In this document: one piece after another, positions 14,933 through 49,397 of the stretch
How positions within the stretch are numbered: position 1 is the first letter of the stretch
Layout of the letters: the number at the start of each line of letters is the position of its first letter
NCBI RefSeq assembly: GCF_041146345.1
Contig: NW_027191405.1
Coordinates: forward strand, 1,550,001-1,614,000
Origin: Neodothiora populina
Taxonomy: Eukaryota
Direction: 5' to 3'
Length of the DNA: 64,000 nt
Notes under the pieces: generated by a model
Told to the model about the DNA's origin: nothing
The model's database searches: none
The model's input: only the letters and a program-made list of their open reading frames with translations
Made by a program: the position numbers and the translations under genes

Positions 14933-16701
14933 TTACTCCTCGGCCTCGAGAGGAGCCTCCTCGTCGTACTCCTCCTCACCCTCGGAGACGGAAGCCTCCT
15001 GGTATTGCTGGTACTCGCTGACAAGATCGTTCATGTTGGACTCGGCCTCGGTGAACTCCATCTCGTCCATGCCCTCGCCAGTGTACCAATGCAAGAAAGC
15101 CTTGCGACGGAACATGGCAGAGAACTGCTCGCCAATGCGCTTGAAGAGCTCCTGGATCGAGGTCGAGTTACCGACGAAGGTCGAGGACATCTTGAGGCCA
15201 CGAGGAGGAATGGAGCAGAGAGCGGTCTGGACGTTGTTGGGGATCCACTCAACGAAGTAAGAAGAGTTCTTGTTCTGGACGTTGCGCATCTGGTCCTCGA
15301 CCTCCTTCATCGAGACCTTACCACGGAAGATGGCAGAGCAGGTGAGGTAACGACCGTTGCGGAAGTCTGATGCGGCCATCATGTTCTTGGGGTCAAAGAT
15401 TTGCTGGGTGAGCTCGGGAACGCTGACGGCGCGGAAAGAGTTGGCGCCGCGGCTGGTGAGGGGAGCGAAACCGACCATGAAGAAATGGAGACGGGGGAAG
15501 GGAACCATGTTCACGGCGAGCTTACGGAGATCCGAGTTGAGCTGGCCAGGGAAACGCAGGCAGGTGGTGACACCAGACATGACGGCGGAGACGAGGTAGT
15601 TCAGGTCACCGTAAGAGGGGTTGTTGAGCTTGAGAGTGCGCATGCAGATGTCGTAGAGAGCCTGTGGGTTGAGGGAGTCAGCAAAAGCGCGCCTTGTGGA
15701 AGTCTTTCATGTTCAACCAACCTCGTTGTCGATACAGAAGGTCTCGTCGGAGTTCTCAACAAGCTGGTGGATGGAGAGAGTGGCGTTGTAAGGCTCGACA
15801 ACAGTGTCAGAGACCTTGGGGGAAGGCATGACGGAGAAAGTGGCCATCATACGGTCGGGGAACTCCTCGCGGATCTTGGAGATGAGGAGCGTTCCCATAC
15901 CGGCACCAGTACCGCCACCGAGGGAGTGGGTGATCTGGAAACCCTGGAGGCAGTCACAGCTCTCGGCCTCGCGACGCACAACATCGAGAACCTGGTCGAC
16001 GAGCTCAGCACCCTCGGTGTAATGACCCTTTGCCCAGTTGTTGCCAGCTCCTGATTGACCGAAGACGAAGTTGTCGGGACGGAAGAGCTGGCCGAAAGGA
16101 CCGGCACGGACAGCGTCCATGGTACCGGGCTCGAGATCGACGAGGACGGCGCGAGGAACGTACTTGTTGCCAGAGGCCTGCATTACAGACGGTCAGTGTA
16201 CGTGTCAAGTGATCAGAAGGCTGTCGCCCGATATCGCTACCTCGTTGAAGTACACATTCATGCGTTCGAGCTGGAGGTCGGAGGTGCCATTGTAGCTGTG
16301 CCATGGTCAGCAAGGAGTTGCGCGAACATCAGGCAGGCATGGTCCAGCGCATAGATGCTTCTCGACATGTCAATGGAGCCAATACTTACACACCAGAGCC
16401 GTCAAGGCCGTGCTCGCCGGAGATGGTTTGCCAGAAGGCAGCACCGACTTGGTTACCCTATTGGAAACGAGTGTTAATGCCGTGTCCTAGCCGAGTGCAG
16501 GAGGTGTCGAGGGCGAGCAACGTACGCATTGGCCGGTCTGGAGGTGGACCTGTTTGGAGAAAGTTGATTAGCAAAGCGACGTTTGTAGATAACCGGTTGT
16601 GCTTTCTGTTGACAAGAATTGTTGACGCGGGACAGGGAGAGAGCTGATCACGCGTGTCCACAAACAAAAGACGACGAGGGAAAACATACAATCTCACGCA
16701 T
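14933..16701 (-). CDS. TUB2: Beta-tubulin, 5 introns
   Basis: [28 protein letters not shown] tubulin signature, [12 protein letters not shown], acidic C-terminal tail. Confidence 0.98.
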
Positions 16702-17153
16702 ATTGACTGTTGTATGAGAATAAAGAAGAAGAAGAAGCAAGAAGACGAGGACCAGCTACTACGGCTTGAATTCAACAGAGAGGTTGTCGTTAAAGTTGTC
16801 TTGTCGGTGAAGAGGTCGAAGGGGGTAGAGGTCTTGCAGAGCTGGGCAGGAGAAGGGGAGATGAGGAAGATGAACCCACAGATGAATCCACTCCACCAAA
16901 CGGCTCCTGCTCGCTTTTGGTGCCAAGCCTCTGCCCACAACAAACCAATCGCTAGCGTGATGAAAACAACAACCACAACCACAGCCATGCGTCTTGGCGT
17001 TGATCAACCCCTGTCCAGCAAGGCTACAAGTACTGTACAGTACCTTATTTCGAATCCTACTGCCTGACCTAGACCCTGTACAGTAAATATCTATAATTCA
17101 AGCCACGGCAAGCACATGCATCTAATTCTGACCAAGACCAACACACGGCAACA

Positions 17154-18401
17154 TCATCGCATCCACCTCCTCCCGATCTCCACCGCATGCTGCTTCTGCA
17201 GAACCATGACATGCACTCTGTGCTTCCCACTTTGCATGTGCTGCATGATATCTACCGGCTGGAGCTGATCGACAATCTTGTTGACCCCATCCTCGACCCC
17301 GAGACCGTCGTACAGTAGCCACCGGCCACTTCCATCTTTGACGGGCAGACAGCTGGCGGCATACCAGTGAGCTTGATTCGCTCCACGCCTATCGTCTCTG
17401 ATGACGAGTACAGCGGGCCTGTATGTCAGGCGGACAAGACGACTCTGCCAAGTCTTGACGCCTCCGCCTCCATCTTGCTCGTTCGCATACTCGACATCAA
17501 AAGTGACAGGGCTGAAGTACTGATCCATCATATTGTCTGGCTTGGTGCAACCATGACCCCACAGCAACAGATGCGGCATACGGTCAAGAACCACGCGTTG
17601 CTGCTTGGGCGGAGCATTGCAATAAGGGCAACGTACTCCGTCGGCCACGGCAGAACTTTGAAAGTAGTGAGCCAATTGAGCTTCGAGCGAACGTGAATTG
17701 TCGTCGTTGATGAAAATACCATCTGTATCCACGACCCGTTGTGTGCCATACGCCGGACAGGTGCTACACGATTGCAATACTGCTCTAGTGAAGGATATTT
17801 GATTCAAAGGCGTCACATCTCGTGACCACGCAAAGGCAAAGAGGTTCTCGATGTCCATTCCTTGTTTCGGTATATAATGCATGCGTGCGTCAAGTTTGAC
17901 AAGCTCCATCACATTGTCGCGCAGCATGTCGAGCTGTTGCTGCGTGAGTTTGAATAGAGGAAGCCGGAGATACTCGATGACAGTCCTCGATAATGCGTCC
18001 ATCTTGTTCAAGTCCGTGCTATCGACGATGGTGTCGCATCTCACGCGGCGGATCTTGCAAACTTGTGATATCCAGAGGAAAGTGTCGACCGCGCATGAAT
18101 GATCAGAGTAAGCTGGCGCCACCAACGCGAAGGGGTCGATTTGTTCAAGACCAGGACTACCATCAGGGAGCATGCGAACCAAGGCCAGGTCATCCCGCGA
18201 GTAAGGAGGATAGATCATGTACCGTGTATTCTGGATCTGCCGGAGGATCTTCGATACTGGCGGAAATCGAGCCAATGTCAATCCGAATCGTTCATACAGA
18301 TCAATGCGATGACCCAGGACGTCTGTAAGTATCTGGTCCTTTCTTTTCTCGAATCGCTGGAACGCGGCAGCGCGCAACACATCTTGGTTACTTGCAGACA
18401 T
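17154..18401 (-). CDS. Intronless hypothetical protein with a USP/C19-like cysteine protease motif order
   Basis: 415-aa ORF with DHSCAVD (Cys box), CSTC and CPYC (Zn finger pairs), RMPHLLL, AHWYA (His box) and WLLYDG. Confidence 0.6.
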   Translation of the reverse strand: MSASNQDVLRAAAFQRFEKRKDQILTDVLGHRIDLYERFGLTLARFPPVSKILRQIQNTRYMIYPPYSRDDLALVRMLPDGSPGLEQIDPFALVAPAYSDHSCAVDTFLWISQVCKIRRVRCDTIVDSTDLNKMDALSRTVIEYLRLPLFKLTQQQLDMLRDNVMELVKLDARMHYIPKQGMDIENLFAFAWSRDVTPLNQISFTRAVLQSCSTCPAYGTQRVVDTDGIFINDDNSRSLEAQLAHYFQSSAVADGVRCPYCNAPPKQQRVVLDRMPHLLLWGHGCTKPDNMMDQYFSPVTFDVEYANEQDGGGGVKTWQSRLVRLTYRPAVLVIRDDRRGANQAHWYAASCLPVKDGSGRWLLYDGLGVEDGVNKIVDQLQPVDIMQHMQSGKHRVHVMVLQKQHAVEIGRRWMR

Positions 18402-40411: not shown

Positions 40412-41183
40412 ATGTCCAAGATCACAGTCGCCGGAGTGCGCACTAACGTGCAGCAACTTCTTGAGTACTCTACCGAGACCAAGAAGAGAAACTTCCTCGA
40501 GACCGTCGAGCTCCAGATCGGCCTCAAGAACTATGACCCTCAGCGTGACAAGCGTTTCTCCGGAACCGTCCGCCTTCCTAAGGTCCCTCGCCCTGGCATG
40601 GCCATCTGGTACGTTCTGGACAATTGAGGATGTAATGAGATTCTTCGTGACGGCAACTGACCGATCACTACAGCATCCTCGGTGACCAGCACGACATCGA
40701 TCGTGCTAAGCACTTCGGTGTTGACGCCATGTCCTCCGACGACTTGAAGAAGCTTAACAAGAACAAGAAGCTCATCAAGAAGCTCGCCCAGAAGTACGAT
40801 GCCTTCATCGCTTCCGACTCCCTCATCAAGCAGATCCCTCGTCTGTTGGGTCCTGGTCTCTCCAAGGGTAAGCGCGCAGAACGTATTCTACACGTGAATC
40901 GTTTCTGACATTTTCTGCAGCTGGCAAGTTCCCTACCCCTGTCTCCCACGCCGAGGATCTCGCTTCCAAGATCAACGAGGTCAAGTCCACCATCAAGTTC
41001 CAGCTGAAGAAGGTTCTCTGCATGGGTGTCGCTGTTGGCAACGTTGAGATGACCGAGGATGAGCTTATCGGAAACATCATGCTTTCCATCAACTACCTCG
41101 TCTCTCTTCTTAAGAAGGGCTGGCAAAACGTTGGAAGTCTTACCATCAAGGCTTCCATGTCACCTCCCAAGCGTCTCTACTAG
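40412..41183 (+). CDS. RPL1: 60S ribosomal protein uL1 (L1/L10a)
   Basis: [10 protein letters not shown]...[28 protein letters not shown]...[23 protein letters not shown]. Two introns. Confidence 0.98.
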
Positions 41184-42380
41184 AGGGCATTTATTTGCAC
41201 CGATAGTCGGCGTCAGAACCGTAGCAATGGCTTTCTAGATGAAAATCTGAATGATTCGCTACGACCACAACTTTCTCCACCTTTTGATGTGCCTACGTGC
41301 CTTGTCAACGACTTGTTGTCCGTGATGAACCATAAAAGAATAATATATGCCTGTAGCTAGTCAGCTGCGACCAAAATGTCGAGTTATATGCTGATCTGTG
41401 GACTATCATAATTTGCTAGGTTCCTAGTACTTAGTGGATGGAGTACTGCGTGAAGGGAGAGGAACCAGAAATAACCATCTGTTTGAACGTCCTATAATTA
41501 TCTTGGCATCAGTGGATGTGGATATTTAGGTTGATTGGAAAGGCAGTAAGAAAAATCTGCGATCGTCCAGCAGTGATACGCATTTTCTCAAGCTACAGAA
41601 TCCCCTTCAACAACCTGCAAATTTTGCAAGCAAATCGATGGGAATGGCAATAATTTTCTTCCAAAGAAGGGTATGTCGCAGCCGTCCCACACCCACGATC
41701 CACTGAAGCGGAATCCACGCAGGTGATTAGGTTGACGGACGCGTCCTTCTATGCGCTCGGGAACGGAACGAACTCCATGGAGAGAGGAGAACACTCAGCA
41801 AGCCTCCGAAGAGGAAACGCAAAGTGACATTAGTCACCTACTGATAGATGAGGAAAGAAGAGTGTTGAGATAGAAGGTGCTTTTATGTCGAAATCTGAAC
41901 GCTTGCTTACTAAGGCGAGGCCGAGCTTTTGCGTCTGAGCGTCTGAGCGTCGCTTGCAGCCAAGTTGGCCCGTTCATTCGGCTGTACTGTACAAGTATGC
42001 CCAGGGCTGGTCAGTCGAAATAATGCTTGAGCGACTTCCGAGGGATGAATCCAGCAGCACTACCATTTATCTGCCTGCATCATGCATACATTCACTGTAC
42101 ACGAACCATCGTAGCGGGCATCAAAGTGAGACTGATCTACCCCTGGGACTGTTCGACAGCGATAAGCAGGTCTAGTCGTCGTATGGCTGGGTGGTCCCCG
42201 TAAGGTCCCCGGATTCACCGATATCCGCTTGACGACTGTCCTTGTCGTTCTTGGTTTCCTACCATCTGTTCTCCTGCTATTGTGCCTCTCTGTGTCAATT
42301 CATTCTGAGCATGCTCTGGTCTGGCGGAAGTATCAACAACTCGAAGATTGAACAGGTTTTTAGCTGCTATTGGTGTGATT

Positions 42381-44285
42381 ATGTCAAGATCTAGTAAGGG
42401 CGAGTGTGCTCGGCCATCGCCTTTGGCTTGCATCGAATGCAGGAAACGTCACCTGAAATGTGATGCCTCATTACCCATCTGTTCTCGCTGCTCGTCAGCT
42501 GCATTAGAGTGTGTGTACACGCCATCTCGGCGAGGGTATCGAGGACCGTCGAAGAGGAAGGACAACAGACAGCACGATCAGTCGCGGAGAGCACCCCGCC
42601 AGTCGATAGAGCGGCGAGCATCCAATACCTCTCACAACGCAGCAGTGGATTGGCCGCTATTACGCCCGATAGAACAAGTCGACACGGAATTCACAAGTAA
42701 TTACACGTTCCAATCGAGCTCAACAGGTGATGATATCGGCAATGCTCTAACCATGTTCGGCGCCGAAGGTACTATACAGTTACAAGATCAGCTACCCACG
42801 ACATATCTCGACAGCAGCGCTGAACCTCGTGCTGGTGCAGACGTTGGTGTCGGTTCTCGCGCTGGTACTGGTACTGGTACTGGTACCGATGACGATGCTT
42901 ATGGTGACGAAGACGACGATGATCCCCAGCTTGTCAATCTCTACTATGCAAATTTCCATGGCGCTCACCCTATGCTCGTACCTAGAGCTTGGTATGCAGA
43001 TCAACGTTATCCAAGCTACTTGCGCCATGTCGTACAGTTCATTGGAAGCCACTTCTCTCCTTCCGTCTCGAGTGATTTCCTATCAAGGGATGCATATAGT
43101 AAGCTGCAAGATACGAGTATCAAATCGCCGTTCATGGTGCAGGCTCTTTTACTCTTCTCGATCGCGCTGCATTCTCAGACTAAGCTGAAAGAAGCAGAGA
43201 AGACCCTCGCTCGTGCCGTGCAGCTATCCCTTGAACTGGGGATGAATGGGCAAGATTTCGCTACCATGAACGGCCGACAGCAGCCCATCCTCGAAGAGAG
43301 TCTGAGGAGAACTTGGTGGGAGGCGTACATTCTTGACGGTTACACAGCTGCTCTTCACCGCAAGCCGGGCTTCAAGACTAGTCACGCAAATTTAAAAGCC
43401 CCACTGCCATGCGAGGAGACTGCCTACGCCGAAGGCGTCTGTATTCCAAGTCCTCCCACCTTAACTGAGTTCGACATGAGGCTCTTTGCAGATGAAGAAA
43501 TACAGTTTTCTTCGTTTTGCTACCGCATCGAAGCAGTGAGAATCCTCTCACGGGTCATTGCCATCGCTGGGACTGATGAAGTTCACGGAGATCAGGTTCA
43601 AGCAGTGGACAATGCTCTGGCCGGATGGGTCCACCATCTACCACCGACTAAAGCAGACATTATCAACAGCTTCGGCGAAGTCGATGAAATGCTGTTTCAA
43701 GCGCACATGATCATACAGTGCTCCAATATTTTCCTTCATTTCCCGCGGAGCGACCTCTTGTCCACTCTACCGGGCACAGAGGAGATCGCCTGCGCCAGAG
43801 GGAATAAGCAGATGTACCCAGCATCGACGCAGCATATCCACGCTGTCAAAGCTACAGATGGCTCGAAGGAGCTTTCAAATCTAGCAGCTCTACGATTACC
43901 TGTCCAGAAGCATACACCCCTCTTCATATGCGGATTGGTGCTCAGCGCCGTCGTTCAGCTGTCCGCATGTGCGGTGCACGCATGTCATTGTATGGAACAG
44001 CATCGAGATAGAGTCACTTTGATTATAGGTGTACTCAAATCTCTAAGCCAGCATTGGCCACTTGCAAGCCAGGTTCTGCAACAAATCAAGCGCGTTGGAT
44101 CAGAGGTTCTACAGGTTCGCAGTAACACCCAAGCGACGGTACCGCCAGAATCATCAGCGCATGATAGTGGAGTGGATGTTTCTCATTGCATGGATGACAA
44201 TTCGTGGATTGATCTCTTTGTGGGTCAAGGCCTCGCTGGTCTCCCATTCTTTGAAACGACTGCCACTTTCGAGCGATCTCCTTGA
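42381..44285 (+). CDS. Zn(II)2Cys6 fungal transcription factor
   Basis: ACIECRKRHLKCDASLPICSRCSSAALECVY cluster, YYANFHGAHPML and ESLRRTWWE middle-domain motifs. Confidence 0.93.
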   Translation: MSRSSKGECARPSPLACIECRKRHLKCDASLPICSRCSSAALECVYTPSRRGYRGPSKRKDNRQHDQSRRAPRQSIERRASNTSHNAAVDWPLLRPIEQVDTEFTSNYTFQSSSTGDDIGNALTMFGAEGTIQLQDQLPTTYLDSSAEPRAGADVGVGSRAGTGTGTGTDDDAYGDEDDDDPQLVNLYYANFHGAHPMLVPRAWYADQRYPSYLRHVVQFIGSHFSPSVSSDFLSRDAYSKLQDTSIKSPFMVQALLLFSIALHSQTKLKEAEKTLARAVQLSLELGMNGQDFATMNGRQQPILEESLRRTWWEAYILDGYTAALHRKPGFKTSHANLKAPLPCEETAYAEGVCIPSPPTLTEFDMRLFADEEIQFSSFCYRIEAVRILSRVIAIAGTDEVHGDQVQAVDNALAGWVHHLPPTKADIINSFGEVDEMLFQAHMIIQCSNIFLHFPRSDLLSTLPGTEEIACARGNKQMYPASTQHIHAVKATDGSKELSNLAALRLPVQKHTPLFICGLVLSAVVQLSACAVHACHCMEQHRDRVTLIIGVLKSLSQHWPLASQVLQQIKRVGSEVLQVRSNTQATVPPESSAHDSGVDVSHCMDDNSWIDLFVGQGLAGLPFFETTATFERSP

Positions 44286-44323
44286 GGCTGCGGCGAGGTT
44301 GGCTAACAGGGCAGCTGCAGGCG

Positions 44324-44375
44324 ACCTCGGCAGGGCTTTCCGTCTGAACGAACGCCGAGGCATGACGCCGAGGTT
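44324..44375. promoter_or_regulatory. Cluster of GCCGAGG motifs upstream of the Cys-rich microprotein gene
   Basis: ACGCCGAGG at 44352 and 44365 (direct repeats) and inverted ACCTCGGC at 44324. Each contains a CGG/CCG triplet typical of Zn2Cys6 half-sites. Confidence 0.4.
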
Positions 44376-44556
44376 GCTATTACCACCTCCATAGCTTAGG
44401 CAAGATACATCAGCTCACGTAGGCTCGTGATAATCATAATAAGACCAAGCTAAGCTACCCTTCAACAACCACCACTCTCAACATTGACGATATTCGAAGA
44501 CATCCGGAACCACTTTTGAGCTACACAATCCCGACTTCTGATCTTCGAATTACAAC

Positions 44557-44784
44557 ATGTGCAGAAAACAACAGTGCTCCAAGTGCAGTACGTTCACCGT
44601 GATCTAGTGTCTGCACACGCAAGCATTATGCTAACACAAAATCACAGACAAGGCCTCCTGGTTCGGCTGCGGCTTGCATGTCCCCAGCGTAATGGACCAG
44701 ATCCCCGAGAGCGAGCGCTGCACCTGTGAACCAAAGGTCGAGCGCGAGGGCAAGAAGTATCCGCCCAAAGCTGAGATGGCCTGA
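44557..44784 (+). CDS. 55-aa cysteine-rich microprotein (two exons; absent from the ORF track)
   Basis: ACAACATG start context. Intron 44588-44647 has GTACGT donor, GCTAAC branch and CAG acceptor. Spliced product: MCRKQQCSKCNKASWFGCGLHVPSVMDQIPESERCTCEPKVEREGKKYPPKAEMA*. Confidence 0.85.
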
Positions 44785-45563
44785 CTTCCTTCTGGATGTG
44801 TCGTCTCATAGGCGTCATGCTTGCTTGGAGTGTTGATCTCTGCGTTCATTGGAAGTAGGGGCGCGGGCAGAGAGGGACGGCCAGCGATTCGGAGCGCGTT
44901 GATGCGTCCTAGTGCATAGAGACTTACATAAATCTCTGTTTTGCTATACTTGGAGATAGACTATGCTTGGATAATTTATTGCCGCCTAATCATATATCCC
45001 ATTGCTTCTTGTGATTTTCTGTTCGGTCGACCCATAATGACTTTGAGTGCTATCGTCTATCACTAAGACCATATCGATGCTATTCACGGACCAATGCAAG
45101 TTTGTAGCTTATTGATATGTAGAGCACCATACACGTCGCAGACCCCCCCGTATGAATGTTCACCGTCATCGCACATGTTCGAATATCTCCAAAATAGCCC
45201 ATTACTGATCGATCGACGCACGCATGGCGAGAGAGAAACATTTCGGGGAAATTGTAAGGAGCAAGCCCCAATGGACAGGGTCGCCCTCGAGAACAGCAGC
45301 TGGATGGATACCACATGTTCGAAACGCATTTAGAGCTCCACTACAACGACATGTCACATGTAATGGTATACACAAATTTCGTAGGTTGTCAAAATTCCGA
45401 ATTCAGCATTGTGACTATATACACAAGACCAAAAAGCAAGAAAAAGCGCAAAAACTCAAGGTGGGTATCGAGCAATCGACCAAGAGGACTCCTCAAATCT
45501 CATCACCGATCAAGCAACCAAGGCAGCAACACCAAAGCAATGCAAGTCAGAACCACCATCGTA

Positions 45564-46672
45564 TCAAAAGACCAATGCAGCGACCATGCCCGAAGAAAAC
45601 ATCGCAGCTACTGAAACAAAGCTCGAAAGTGAAAACGTGGCGAGTCCACTGATGCCGTGTCCGGATGTGCAGCCGCCCGCGATACCAGCACCGAATGCCA
45701 TGATCGTGCCTCCGAGGATTGCCTTGACGGGCTCCACGACAGTGCCTGGAGTTGCGCTCGCGGGGGGCGGGAAGTGGTGCGAAAGGACGACACTAGCCGA
45801 GGTTATGCCAAGAGCGAACACAGTCGCTGGTGCAAGAAGTTGGCTGGTAGCTTGTGGGTCGAAGATGCTCGATCTGAATGTGCGTTGCAAGTAGCGGCCG
45901 ATGTTCTGATACACTCCAGAGCAGCCGACGGAGTGCTTGTTTAGCAGAATGGAAACTCCTTGCGCGGCTCCAATGGCAAGACCACCAGTGATGGGCGAGA
46001 TGAGGCCTGCAAGTTGCGGCTGTGACTTGTGGGGGTCTAGGCTGGAGGCGATATATAGAATGGCCATGCAAGTGGCTTCCCAAGCGACCACCATGGTCAA
46101 AGGGTTAGCTTCGAGCGTCGCAGTGATGGTCGGCTCTCGCGATGAAGTCGATGTTGCAAGTAAGACCGTAGCATCAGATTGTTTCTCATGTGACTTTCGG
46201 AGAGATTGAGTCCGAGCTGGCTTCGTATGTTGGAGATATGGCAGCGCAAGGACGTAACCAAGGCCACCAACGACAGCACCGATGAGAGTGAATGTTCCGC
46301 GGCCGGTTCCAGCCTGCACGAGGACAGTGCCTGGGCATGCGCCCGTCAGAACCATCCCGGCACCAATCATGGCACCGCCAATGACGTTGCCATCATATGG
46401 GAAGAAGCCCAAGTTTCGAGGCTCTCTGACTTTCAGTGTCGCATAATGCGTCTGATTTGCAACATGCAGCACGATTCTGATATCAGATTAGTAGCGCTTT
46501 TGGTTCCCTCATCGTAAAAGAATGCTTACGCGCTGACACCACTTGCAGTGACGAAGGATTTCAGCATATGGAAGTTCGTCAAATTGAACTGCGTCAAAAT
46601 TACGTCTGGTGAATAGACGCCTGAGGCAAAAAGTGCAGCGCCAAAGGCTGCGCCTGCCTCAAATTCGGCCAT
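45564..46672 (-). CDS. YeeE/YedE family sulfur-compound (thiosulfate-type) transporter, two-repeat membrane protein
   Basis: MAEFEAGAAFGAALFASGVYSPDVILTQF exon, intron 46477-46529, then GGAMIGAGMVLTGACPGT and GGTIMAFGAGIAGGCTSGHGISG signature motifs. Confidence 0.88.
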
Positions 46673-47511
46673 AGCAGATGCTCTCACAATGGTGGTACAG
46701 AAAAGTGTAAGAGTAAAGCACGTGGGTGGCGTTGATAAGGGAAAAAGCAGATCTTCTGACCGACCGAACTGAACTTGTACGGCCACCATAAAACTTCACA
46801 TACCTAAGGTACCTTAGAACAGCTCACTTACACTGACGGGGACGTTGGCGTGCTTTCACTATGGTCGCCGGCTGATCTACCTGAACGGTTCAGTGCGCTT
46901 TACGCTTCCACGCTATAGGGTTCTCTTCATCACAAACAATGGAAGCGAGATTCTGTCTGGATATGACCAAATGAATCAACAGACGTTGTGGCCCGCGCTC
47001 TTGACATAGGACTGTAACATTCGGTTTGTCCACATGATCATCGAGACTTTTGAGTTCATGGGCACCGCTGCTTGTTTAGTAGTAGAGACGCGCTTTTCCT
47101 CCAGTGCTATATGCTATTATATGTGTTCCTCACCGCGGATCTGATCCTTCTGCCAAGGATAGACGATCACTTGTCCGTTATTCTTGGCGATAAAAGTGAC
47201 GTTGTGGGATGCCCACATCACCTCGCTCACAGCATCAGAACTTCCTGTGACAACCATCGAAGGATGCATCGCCGCTGTCTAGCGGGCGAGCAACGATGTT
47301 TGTGGTCTTGGTTCATTTATATCGGCAATCGGCTCCTATCGCCAAGACCGTAGTGAACAGATATGATGGGCGAAAGTTCAACCCTAACGACGTAGGATTG
47401 GTCGAAATTGGCAGTTTCGACTCATGTCCCTCTTTACGAGTAGTATAGCAAGCGAAAAGTGGACATAACAGGATGGTCGTTTGACGTCTTTCCCAATCCT
47501 TCGCGCGTATA

Positions 47512-48635: not shown

Positions 48636-49397
48636 ATGTGGTACTCAAACAAGGCGTGCCTGCTCGGATTGGCCATCTTCGCTGCTGGCTTTCCATCTGC
48701 CACCCAGGCTCAAAGCTCAGATGCAGGCTGCTCTGTATTCAATGGATTAGACCCATTCACGCGAACGGGCTCTCAAACCTACCGTATCAGTTTAGGGATA
48801 ACATGCACGACCGATTATCCAGGCTTCGCCCGCGACAGATGTCCACTGGAAGCTCACGGTTTCATTGAAGCACAACGAACAGACAACTTCTCGAGTGCCG
48901 TGGGATCCACCTCACAGGACTCACTGGCGACTTGGAACACCATTATCGCCTCTCTCGATGATGACTCACTCCTCTTGAGGGAGACGAATAGCTCGCGTTC
49001 GGCTCTGAACCAGACGACCTTTTTAGGCTATGCCGGCAACGTGACCGCTTATATCCCACTGAACACGTCTTCTTACGTCGGATTTACCATAGCGTACTTG
49101 TGCCAATCTGGTACAGTATCTGGGTGCCGCGATGGTTACATCGCCAATGACACCCTTGTCGAAGGTTGCATTCCATTGTATCACAACAGAACTCGCACCG
49201 ACAACATTACTCTGCCTACTTGGTGGGGTACGATAGGTCCGGTGACCACCGATGCGGAGACCGTCCAAAACATGACGACGAACATGTATGCGGAGGAACC
49301 TCAGAATGACAGCAGTAATGATGTGGGCCGGATTGGGATGAGTTTTTCTGTCATGACTGTAACCCTGCTGGCCATTTTGGTATCTGTCATTTCATAG
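48636..49397 (+). CDS. Secreted, probably GPI-anchored hypothetical protein
   Basis: 253-aa intronless ORF with a signal peptide, 6 Cys in the mature part, several N-x-S/T sites and a hydrophobic C-terminus. Confidence 0.7.
   Translation: MWYSNKACLLGLAIFAAGFPSATQAQSSDAGCSVFNGLDPFTRTGSQTYRISLGITCTTDYPGFARDRCPLEAHGFIEAQRTDNFSSAVGSTSQDSLATWNTIIASLDDDSLLLRETNSSRSALNQTTFLGYAGNVTAYIPLNTSSYVGFTIAYLCQSGTVSGCRDGYIANDTLVEGCIPLYHNRTRTDNITLPTWWGTIGPVTTDAETVQNMTTNMYAEEPQNDSSNDVGRIGMSFSVMTVTLLAILVSVIS

Follow-up and report, generated by a model that had tools for sequence, protein, structure and literature searches.

A conserved gene cluster around a Zn2Cys6 factor of Neodothiora populina and its probable role in fungal reactive-sulfur detoxification

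Several systems that handle reactive sulfur have been described. For example, the bigR-blh operon of Xylella and Agrobacterium and the yedE1-yedE2-pdo operons are reported to serve sulfide and polysulfide detoxification (PMC5823870, PMC10812762), and the CsoR-PDO-TauE-rhodanese circuit of Streptomyces and the cst system of Staphylococcus are presented as self-regulated means of removing sulfane sulfur (PMC7533328; PDO, persulfide dioxygenase). The YedE1E2 transporter reportedly imports zero-valent sulfur and co-occurs with, and is coupled to, pdo; the same source points to a co-occurrence in STRING, "in bacteria and fungi", of yedE with PDO and with sulfide:quinone oxidoreductase (SQR) (PMC10812762). 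In Candida albicans, a zinc-cluster factor, Zcf2, is described as governing reactive-sulfur tolerance and cysteine dioxygenase through Ssu1 and Cdg1 (PMC13170222, PMC10374912), and a 2026 paper states that no route of reactive-sulfur detoxification other than Zcf2-Ssu1 was previously known in that species (PMC13170222). The sensing and removal of sulfide, polysulfide and elemental sulfur in filamentous fungi are little understood. Here, we analyse a 64,000-nucleotide stretch of the Neodothiora populina genome (contig NW_027191405.1, positions 1,550,001 to 1,614,000; hereafter, the window), in which three adjacent genes at 42381..46672 encode a Zn2Cys6 transcription factor, a 55-residue Cys-rich microprotein and a YeeE/YedE-family transporter. 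This trio is probably the core of an autoregulated fungal regulon for the detoxification of reactive sulfur (sulfane sulfur, polysulfide and sulfide), present here in a reduced form.

Conserved linkage in other fungi, with PDO and SQR included, had been set beforehand as the test of the original prediction of a sulfur-handling module, and the outcome was positive among 80 fungal loci. A metagenome scan with an alignment of the transcription factor retrieved 173 relatives, and the best 80 of the 173 loci, with flanks of up to 10 kb, were analysed. These form 32 groups at 75% identity, and their neighbours were identified by hidden Markov model and all-against-all searches of six-frame open reading frames (ORFs). 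At least one partner (YeeE, microprotein, PDO, SQR, a DUF1275 protein or cysteine dioxygenase, CDO) lies near the factor in 14 of the 32 groups, and in 9 of the 16 groups having at least 2.5 kb of flank on both sides. By group, YeeE and PDO are the most frequent partners (8 each), followed by the microprotein (6), DUF1275 (4), CDO (3) and SQR (2); by locus, the counts out of 80 are PDO 25, YeeE 16, microprotein 14, DUF1275 12, CDO 5 and SQR 4. The factor, microprotein and YeeE are kept together in 5/32 groups. Comparing all neighbours against all revealed no recurrent assimilation gene near the factor.

At least six gene orders occur among the linked loci. The window's own order (factor, microprotein, YeeE) is seen in L003, L004 and L006, and others include factor-YeeE-PDO (L016), factor-PDO-SQR (L013, L017), YeeE-DUF1275-microprotein-factor-PDO (L032, L039), factor-DUF1275-PDO-YeeE (L028), microprotein-factor-ABC-DUF1275-PDO-YeeE, with or without a terminal CDO (L065, L072), and factor-CDO (L045). 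The factor stands with the microprotein alone in L027 and with YeeE alone in L021. Linked loci are scattered across the whole tree of the factor (FastTree, 40 sequences, 401 columns, midpoint root), and the named factors closest to them belong to Dothideales, Pleosporales, Eurotiales and others. For example, the three genes occupy the consecutive locus tags D6D02_06200-06202 in Aureobasidium pullulans, and YeeE lies five locus tags from the factor in two Pseudogymnoascus genomes. By our estimate, chance would place a single-copy gene within 10 kb of the factor in fewer than 0.1% of genomes of this size. From the shuffled gene orders and changing outer neighbours, we infer selection for clustering rather than inherited synteny. 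The enzymatic partners were identified by similarity: the best NCBIfam match of the fungal PDO is Blh (NF040641; 281 bits over the dioxygenase part only, against a full-length cut-off of 625), it matches the bacterial MBL-fold structures 9G8T, 4YSK and 4EFZ with E-values of 1e-70 to 1e-57, and the cluster SQR matches human SQOR at 8e-90.

The linked genes also share a promoter element, CGG(C/G)GAC. In a de novo k-mer and dyad analysis, which set 42 partner promoters against 400 background windows and left out the promoters of the factor itself, the top-ranked dyad was CGG-N-GAC (35/42 versus 58/400), with C or G as the usual middle base. Counting one promoter per factor group and gene, we find the element in 20 of 27 partner promoters (90-400 bp upstream) and in 7 of 114 control ORF-upstream regions, figures in which related loci and divergent genes sharing promoters are not independent and the controls include some non-promoter DNA. 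It is found before the microprotein (5/7), YeeE (6/8), PDO (5/8) and DUF1275 (4/4). Dinucleotide shuffles of the partner promoters gave a mean of 2.2 and a maximum of 7 in 500 trials, and the reversed motif scored 4/27. Among the held-out promoters of the factor, 22 after removal of eight loci whose factor shares its promoter with the microprotein, 11 carry the element (p 2.5e-6). CDO promoters have sites in L045, L047 and L048 and none in L068 and L072.

In the window, two direct-repeat copies precede the factor (42194-42200 and 42205-42211, read on the minus strand, at -187 and -176) and are followed by further CCG half-sites; the whole array (42194..42229) is conserved in the nearest relative locus, L003, and is a candidate autoregulatory element. 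Two copies in opposite orientation stand 165-198 bp upstream of the YeeE ATG (46837-46843 and 46864-46870). The microprotein promoter contains footprints at 44319..44373, namely a 16-nt and a 12-nt block identical in L003, with one-mismatch versions of the element. Zinc-cluster factors are reported to target CGG half-sites as a rule (PMC10374912), and it would thus be natural for the clustered factor to bind the element, including in its own promoter. The 7-mer alone occurs 0.39 times per kb and therefore cannot predict targets genome-wide; a paired-element search of the N. populina genome returned 42 matches versus 60 for a reversed control, mostly coding, and inspection of 35 of them added no member to the regulon.

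Several features of individual clusters deserve mention. A DUF1275 membrane protein recurs (L028, L029, L032, L033, L039 and L061-L072) and is a candidate sulfite or thiosulfate exporter replacing TauE. The PDO homologue of L030 (11557-12591, + strand), which adjoins the factor and carries the promoter element, has a degenerate metal-binding motif (no HxHxDH) and is possibly a pseudo-enzyme. In L017, a gene of the sodium:neurotransmitter symporter family (15820-17871, + strand) lies directly 3' of factor-PDO-SQR, and an ABCG-type transporter adjoins the factor in three groups (L053, L055, L061-L072, L075).

The original prediction was of a self-regulated unit for the uptake or detoxification of thiosulfate or sulfane sulfur. 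The unit is conserved and, given the linkage and the shared promoter element, probably co-regulated and autoregulated; since its partners are enzymes of oxidation, sulfane-sulfur detoxification is favoured over the uptake of thiosulfate for assimilation. In the mechanism that we propose, excess polysulfide or persulfide would activate the Zn2Cys6 factor, which would then bind CGG(C/G)GAC half-sites and induce its own gene, the microprotein and YeeE, plus PDO, SQR, DUF1275 and CDO where these are linked. As in bacterial YedE1E2, Cys95 and Cys317 of YeeE would pass zero-valent sulfur across a membrane to glutathione, whose persulfide would, in full clusters, be oxidised to sulfite by PDO, with SQR oxidising H2S.

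The gene models bear out the predicted arrangement of three adjacent genes, with the microprotein some 270 bp past the stop codon of the factor and convergent with the transporter. The factor (42381..44285, + strand) is an intronless ORF of 634 aa. The microprotein ATG, at 44557, lies 271 bp 3' of the factor's stop; exon 1 (44557..44587, + strand) encodes C-x4-C-x2-C, exon 2 (44648..44784, + strand, stop at 44784) encodes W-x-G-C-G-x-H and C-x-C, and the 60-nt GT..AG intron between them (44588-44647) falls after codon 10 in phase 1, a position that recurs in 9 of the 14 relative loci bearing a microprotein. An unspliced reading is ruled out by in-frame stops, and a public 55-aa N. populina hypothetical protein matches exon 2 at 100%. 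The YeeE gene, on the minus strand, has a 53-nt intron and encodes 351 aa: exon 1 (46530..46672) supplies a DUF6691/PmpB-like N-terminus without Cys, and exon 2 (45564..46476) holds Cys95 (GACPG) and Cys317 (GGCTSGHG). Its stop is 779 bp from that of the microprotein. All three frames are intact and their introns canonical. Each gene has a single match in the 24-Mb N. populina genome, so the adjacency is not explained by gene-family size. The single RNA run yielded only one 267-nt contig, within the factor gene, and is uninformative about expression.

Around the trio, a Tc5/pogo-type transposase DNA-binding remnant (PF03221; 47647-48087, + strand) is found some 1 kb from YeeE on its upstream side, at a place taken in some relatives by a divergent PDO gene, and downstream of the remnant is a DUF6060 protein with a signal-peptide-like start (48636-49397, + strand). 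On the other side, a second, unrelated Zn2Cys6 factor (PF00172, PF04082; 35761-37701, minus strand) lies 4.7 kb upstream of the first, with a ribosomal protein L1 gene (~40412-41183) between them.

The microprotein belongs to a widespread family (975 representatives at E<=0.001) for which Pfam gave no convincing match among 44 members. The pattern C-x4-C-x2-C-x4-W-x-G-C-G-x-H-x13-C-x-C is invariant in 14 bacterial and fungal rows, and the six Cys and one His are invariant or nearly so from fungi to bacteria. Named members, from 10 clusters looked up, represent several classes of ascomycetes, basidiomycete yeasts and one leech, the annotated homologue being that of Helobdella robusta; the ESM Atlas adds plant-dominated and actinobacterial clusters, as a lead only. 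An AlphaFold2 model (mean pLDDT 88.7) has short hairpins and one short helix, and fold searches found nothing at E<=0.001 or Z>=2, which does not by itself imply a novel fold. The proposal that this protein is a YeeD/TusA-like partner of YeeE found no support. TusA and YeeD are described as proteins of about 80 aa with an active Cys in a CPxP motif and two helices on a four-stranded sheet (PMC11073785); the microprotein has no CPxP, none of the 44 members matches TusA (PF01206), the predicted fold is different, and YeeE adjoins bacterial homologues in 0/59 loci.

The bacterial homologues were found in 40/401 genomes from the phylum to which a Tessaracoccus genome belongs and in 58/301 from that of a Myxococcaceae genome; the locus of one of the 58 (G600, unpublished) was excluded from the neighbour count. 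For the actinobacteria, the 30 best-scoring loci of 44 matches were analysed through 120 ORFs that passed a coding filter, so that each count is a minimum: within 1.5 kb there is a rhodanese-domain gene in at least 8/30, a TauE gene in at least 4/30, a CsoR/CstR-family repressor in at least 4/30, and any of these in at least 10/30. Seven of the eight rhodanese genes are MBL-rhodanese (PDO-rhodanese) fusions, one with a weak MBL score. Against a rhodanese background of ~2.5 per Mb (48 matches in 19.5 Mb of five of these genomes), ~0.24 of 30 windows would be expected. In the myxobacterial phylum, rhodanese or TauE is present in 5/29 loci (rhodanese 4, TauE 2), and YgaP-like transmembrane, DUF302 and disulfide oxidoreductase proteins occur in 4 each. 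Fungal and bacterial contexts thus independently concern persulfide or thiol stress, with YeeE in none of the 59 bacterial loci, and do not mark the microprotein as a YeeE-specific partner. Its six Cys and one His would be suited to binding zinc and reacting with sulfane sulfur, and it may plausibly, with a little less than even confidence, fold around zinc and act as a thiolate sink or sulfane-sulfur buffer.

Such a protein could also fit a general stress module for thiols, electrophiles, metals or metalloids (selenium species, thiol-reactive fungicides, zinc or copper), in which the sulfur enzymes are optional and the microprotein is metallothionein-like. We consider this unlikely, though it is the alternative that survives best. 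Those recurrent fungal partners whose function can be assigned are enzymes of sulfide, persulfide or cysteine, and a defined hydrophobic core together with invariant Trp, Gly and His residues sets the microprotein apart from metallothioneins.

The transporter matches PF04143 (Sulf_transp) at 125 bits, against a cut-off of 27. Cys95 and Cys317 are invariant in 118/118 fungal-type YeeE proteins and align with C91 and C293 of the Spirochaeta thermophila protein StYeeE (6LEO; E 1e-4 versus the window protein), both of which are reported to be essential (PMC7449682); Cys184 is retained in 110/118. The first of the three bacterial cysteines, in loop A (StYeeE C22, E. coli C25), has no counterpart: there is no Cys before GACPG in the window protein or in 16 of 17 other full-length relatives, and no Cys-rich column in this region across 118 rows. 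The two halves are nearest to DUF6691/PmpB and PmpA-like bacterial proteins (36% and 44% local identity), and features of that PmpB/PmpA (YedE2/YedE1) group, one of those in a published grouping of the YeeE family (PMC11582611), are matched with modest scores: one Cys per half, a DUF6691-like N-terminal half and GCTSG in the C-terminal half. In relatives, PDO is often found nearby; the fungal protein, however, is a single chain. By sequence, then, it is a YeeE-family member and not TsuA, and by analogy it most likely works like YedE1E2. YeeE-like transporters exist in animals as well, the closest Atlas structure belonging to a rotifer-dominated eukaryotic cluster (TM 0.80).

These data bear on a thiosulfate uptake unit for assimilation, similar to TsuA-TsuB of E. 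coli, with the microprotein as a YeeD-like acceptor. PF04143 membership and the two retained essential cysteines would fit it, and the lack of the first Cys is compatible with thiosulfate transport, since complementation was still seen with the C22A variant of S. thermophila YeeE. A single CACGTG before the YeeE gene (46719) and the failure to find PDO in the N. populina genome point the same way. However, the TsuA equivalog models are far from satisfied (NF052577, 54 of 400 bits; NF041049, 29 of 645 bits), the absent loop-A Cys is located at the YeeD interface, the microprotein lacks both CPxP and the TusA fold, and the recurrent partners are oxidative (PDO, SQR and CDO) rather than assimilatory. 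We therefore regard such a unit as improbable.

The transcription factor contains PF00172 (aa 16-51, 42 bits) and PF04082 (aa 186-348, 55 bits); of 6683 candidates, 570 are related to it at E<=1e-20. Its C-terminal ACAVHACHC patch (43965..43991, + strand; aa 529-537) had been suggested as a thiol sensor. That role is not established, because the patch is only partly conserved, as C-x2-H-x3-C: C530 (88/120), H533 (77/120) and C537 (79/107) are kept in 64-74% of rows, whereas C535 (29/120) and H536 (17/107) are not. The literal Cys/His cluster is confined to the nearest relatives and was rejected as a conserved motif. Outside the zinc cluster, the conserved Cys residues that are candidates for sensing sulfane sulfur are C344 (118/120), C517 (93/120), C380 (89/120) and C530, and C344, H196, H453 and H487 are more constant than the residues of the patch. 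The factor gene also carries tandem repeats at 42852-42919 (a GT-repeat and an acidic tract) without counterpart in relatives, and a Venustampulla model of the factor carries an extra thioredoxin domain at its N-terminus, probably from a merged neighbouring gene.

It is also conceivable, though very unlikely, that the trio is a sensing arm rather than a bulk detoxification system, YeeE admitting trace external sulfur and the microprotein relaying the signal to the factor. SoxT1B is reported as a precedent for such signal transduction (PMC11582611), L027 and L021 retain the factor with only one of the two, and the trio persists in N. populina, in whose genome no PDO was found. Against this, the regulators found with bacterial microprotein homologues are unrelated ones (CsoR/CstR, ECF sigma), which means that a dedicated partner of the factor is not implied, and many factor-PDO-SQR loci have neither YeeE nor the microprotein nearby.

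A number of observations weigh against the detoxification regulon itself. No partner was seen in 18 of the 32 factor groups, many of them on short contigs and 7 with long flanks. The factor and YeeE matches are on separate contigs in Dothideomycetes NU459 and Clohesyomyces, and the neighbour of the factor in Penicillium, a 448-aa protein considered as an SQR, proved to be an FAD monooxygenase. For the promoter element, the p-values overstate independence, given that loci are related and that several of the promoters counted serve two divergent genes, and no strict CGG(C/G)GAC site is present in the window's microprotein promoter. The window YeeE has Gly312 where 109/118 relatives have Arg. Neither the window nor the genome yielded a Blh-like PDO (two proteins, one NCBIfam model and 8 MBL-fold matches were checked), and the N. 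populina SQR is on another contig with no element within 900 bp upstream. Finally, two thirds of the actinobacterial and most of the myxobacterial microprotein loci have no persulfide gene within 1.5 kb, and the presence of ECF sigma factors (10/29) and OsmC (5/29) in the myxobacterial phylum (L179-L206) suggests a broader thiol stress, possibly an undescribed thiol-stress regulon including the microprotein.

With PDO not found, the oxidation step of the proposed regulon is either missing or unrecognised in N. populina. The 10-kb neighbourhood of its SQR holds polyketide-synthase-like frames and other ORFs with no PDO-like frame seen, and its three DUF1275 genes are all unlinked to the trio. 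Since Aureobasidium has the same PDO-less trio across a 10-kb flank (L006), the reduced form is shared and probably functional. In such genomes, sulfur might be disposed of by reduction to H2S through glutathione or thioredoxin, or by an unrecognised oxidase. That the trio is instead a decaying relic, as the lack of PDO, the nearby transposase remnant, the replaced Arg312 and the lower identity of YeeE (41-55% to its top relatives, versus 76-80% for the factor region) might indicate, is highly improbable in view of the three intact frames and canonical introns, the PDO-less order of Aureobasidium, the promoter footprints conserved with L003 and the replacement of Arg312 in close relatives too.

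A literature search, largely outside subscription journals, found no account of this fungal cluster, its factor, the element or the microprotein. The reactive-sulfur regulon proposed here supplies a candidate regulator, a candidate DNA element and candidate targets, all directly testable, together with a likely role for the uncharacterised fungal YeeE proteins and the first functional context, in fungi and bacteria, for a family of tiny proteins without a Pfam entry. It also has a bearing on how fungi live in niches that are sulfidic or low in oxygen and on the handling of elemental-sulfur fungicides. It is tempting to go further, albeit tentatively: persulfide-responsive regulation in filamentous ascomycetes might be the dedicated task of the factor's subfamily, which would control an SQR-PDO-YeeE regulon through CGG(C/G)GAC, and the microprotein might be an unrecognised sulfane-sulfur carrier or buffer of Actinomycetota, myxobacteria, fungi, plants and some animals, a component so far lacking from the picture of persulfide detoxification across kingdoms.

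Compared with these known systems, the fungal clusters most resemble the bigR-blh and yedE1-yedE2-pdo operons, which likewise combine a regulator, a Blh-type dioxygenase and YedE/YeeE proteins. The fungal regulator, however, is a Zn2Cys6 protein and not an ArsR repressor, YeeE is one chain, DUF1275 recurs rather than TauE, and a Cys-rich microprotein is added; the match of the fungal PDO to Blh is confined to the dioxygenase part, and no PDO was found in the N. populina genome. Loci of the actinobacterial microprotein homologues share the make-up of the Streptomyces CsoR circuit, whereas the fungal clusters differ from it and from cst in regulator family and PDO type, and the available part of that account (PMC7533328) mentions no small Cys-rich protein. 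TsuA-TsuB (YeeE-YeeD) shares the transporter superfamily and the C91 and C293 equivalents, but not the C22 equivalent, the TsuA cut-offs or a TusA-like partner. Zcf2 is a functional precedent for the factor's subfamily, likened by function, and CDO is linked in the 3/32 groups noted above; its targets, as described in the sources cited, are SSU1, CDG1 and AOX2, in place of YeeE, PDO and SQR here. Taken as a whole, the detoxification logic is already known from bacteria, in bigR-blh and the CsoR circuit, and the fungal version adds to it an uncharacterised cross-kingdom component.

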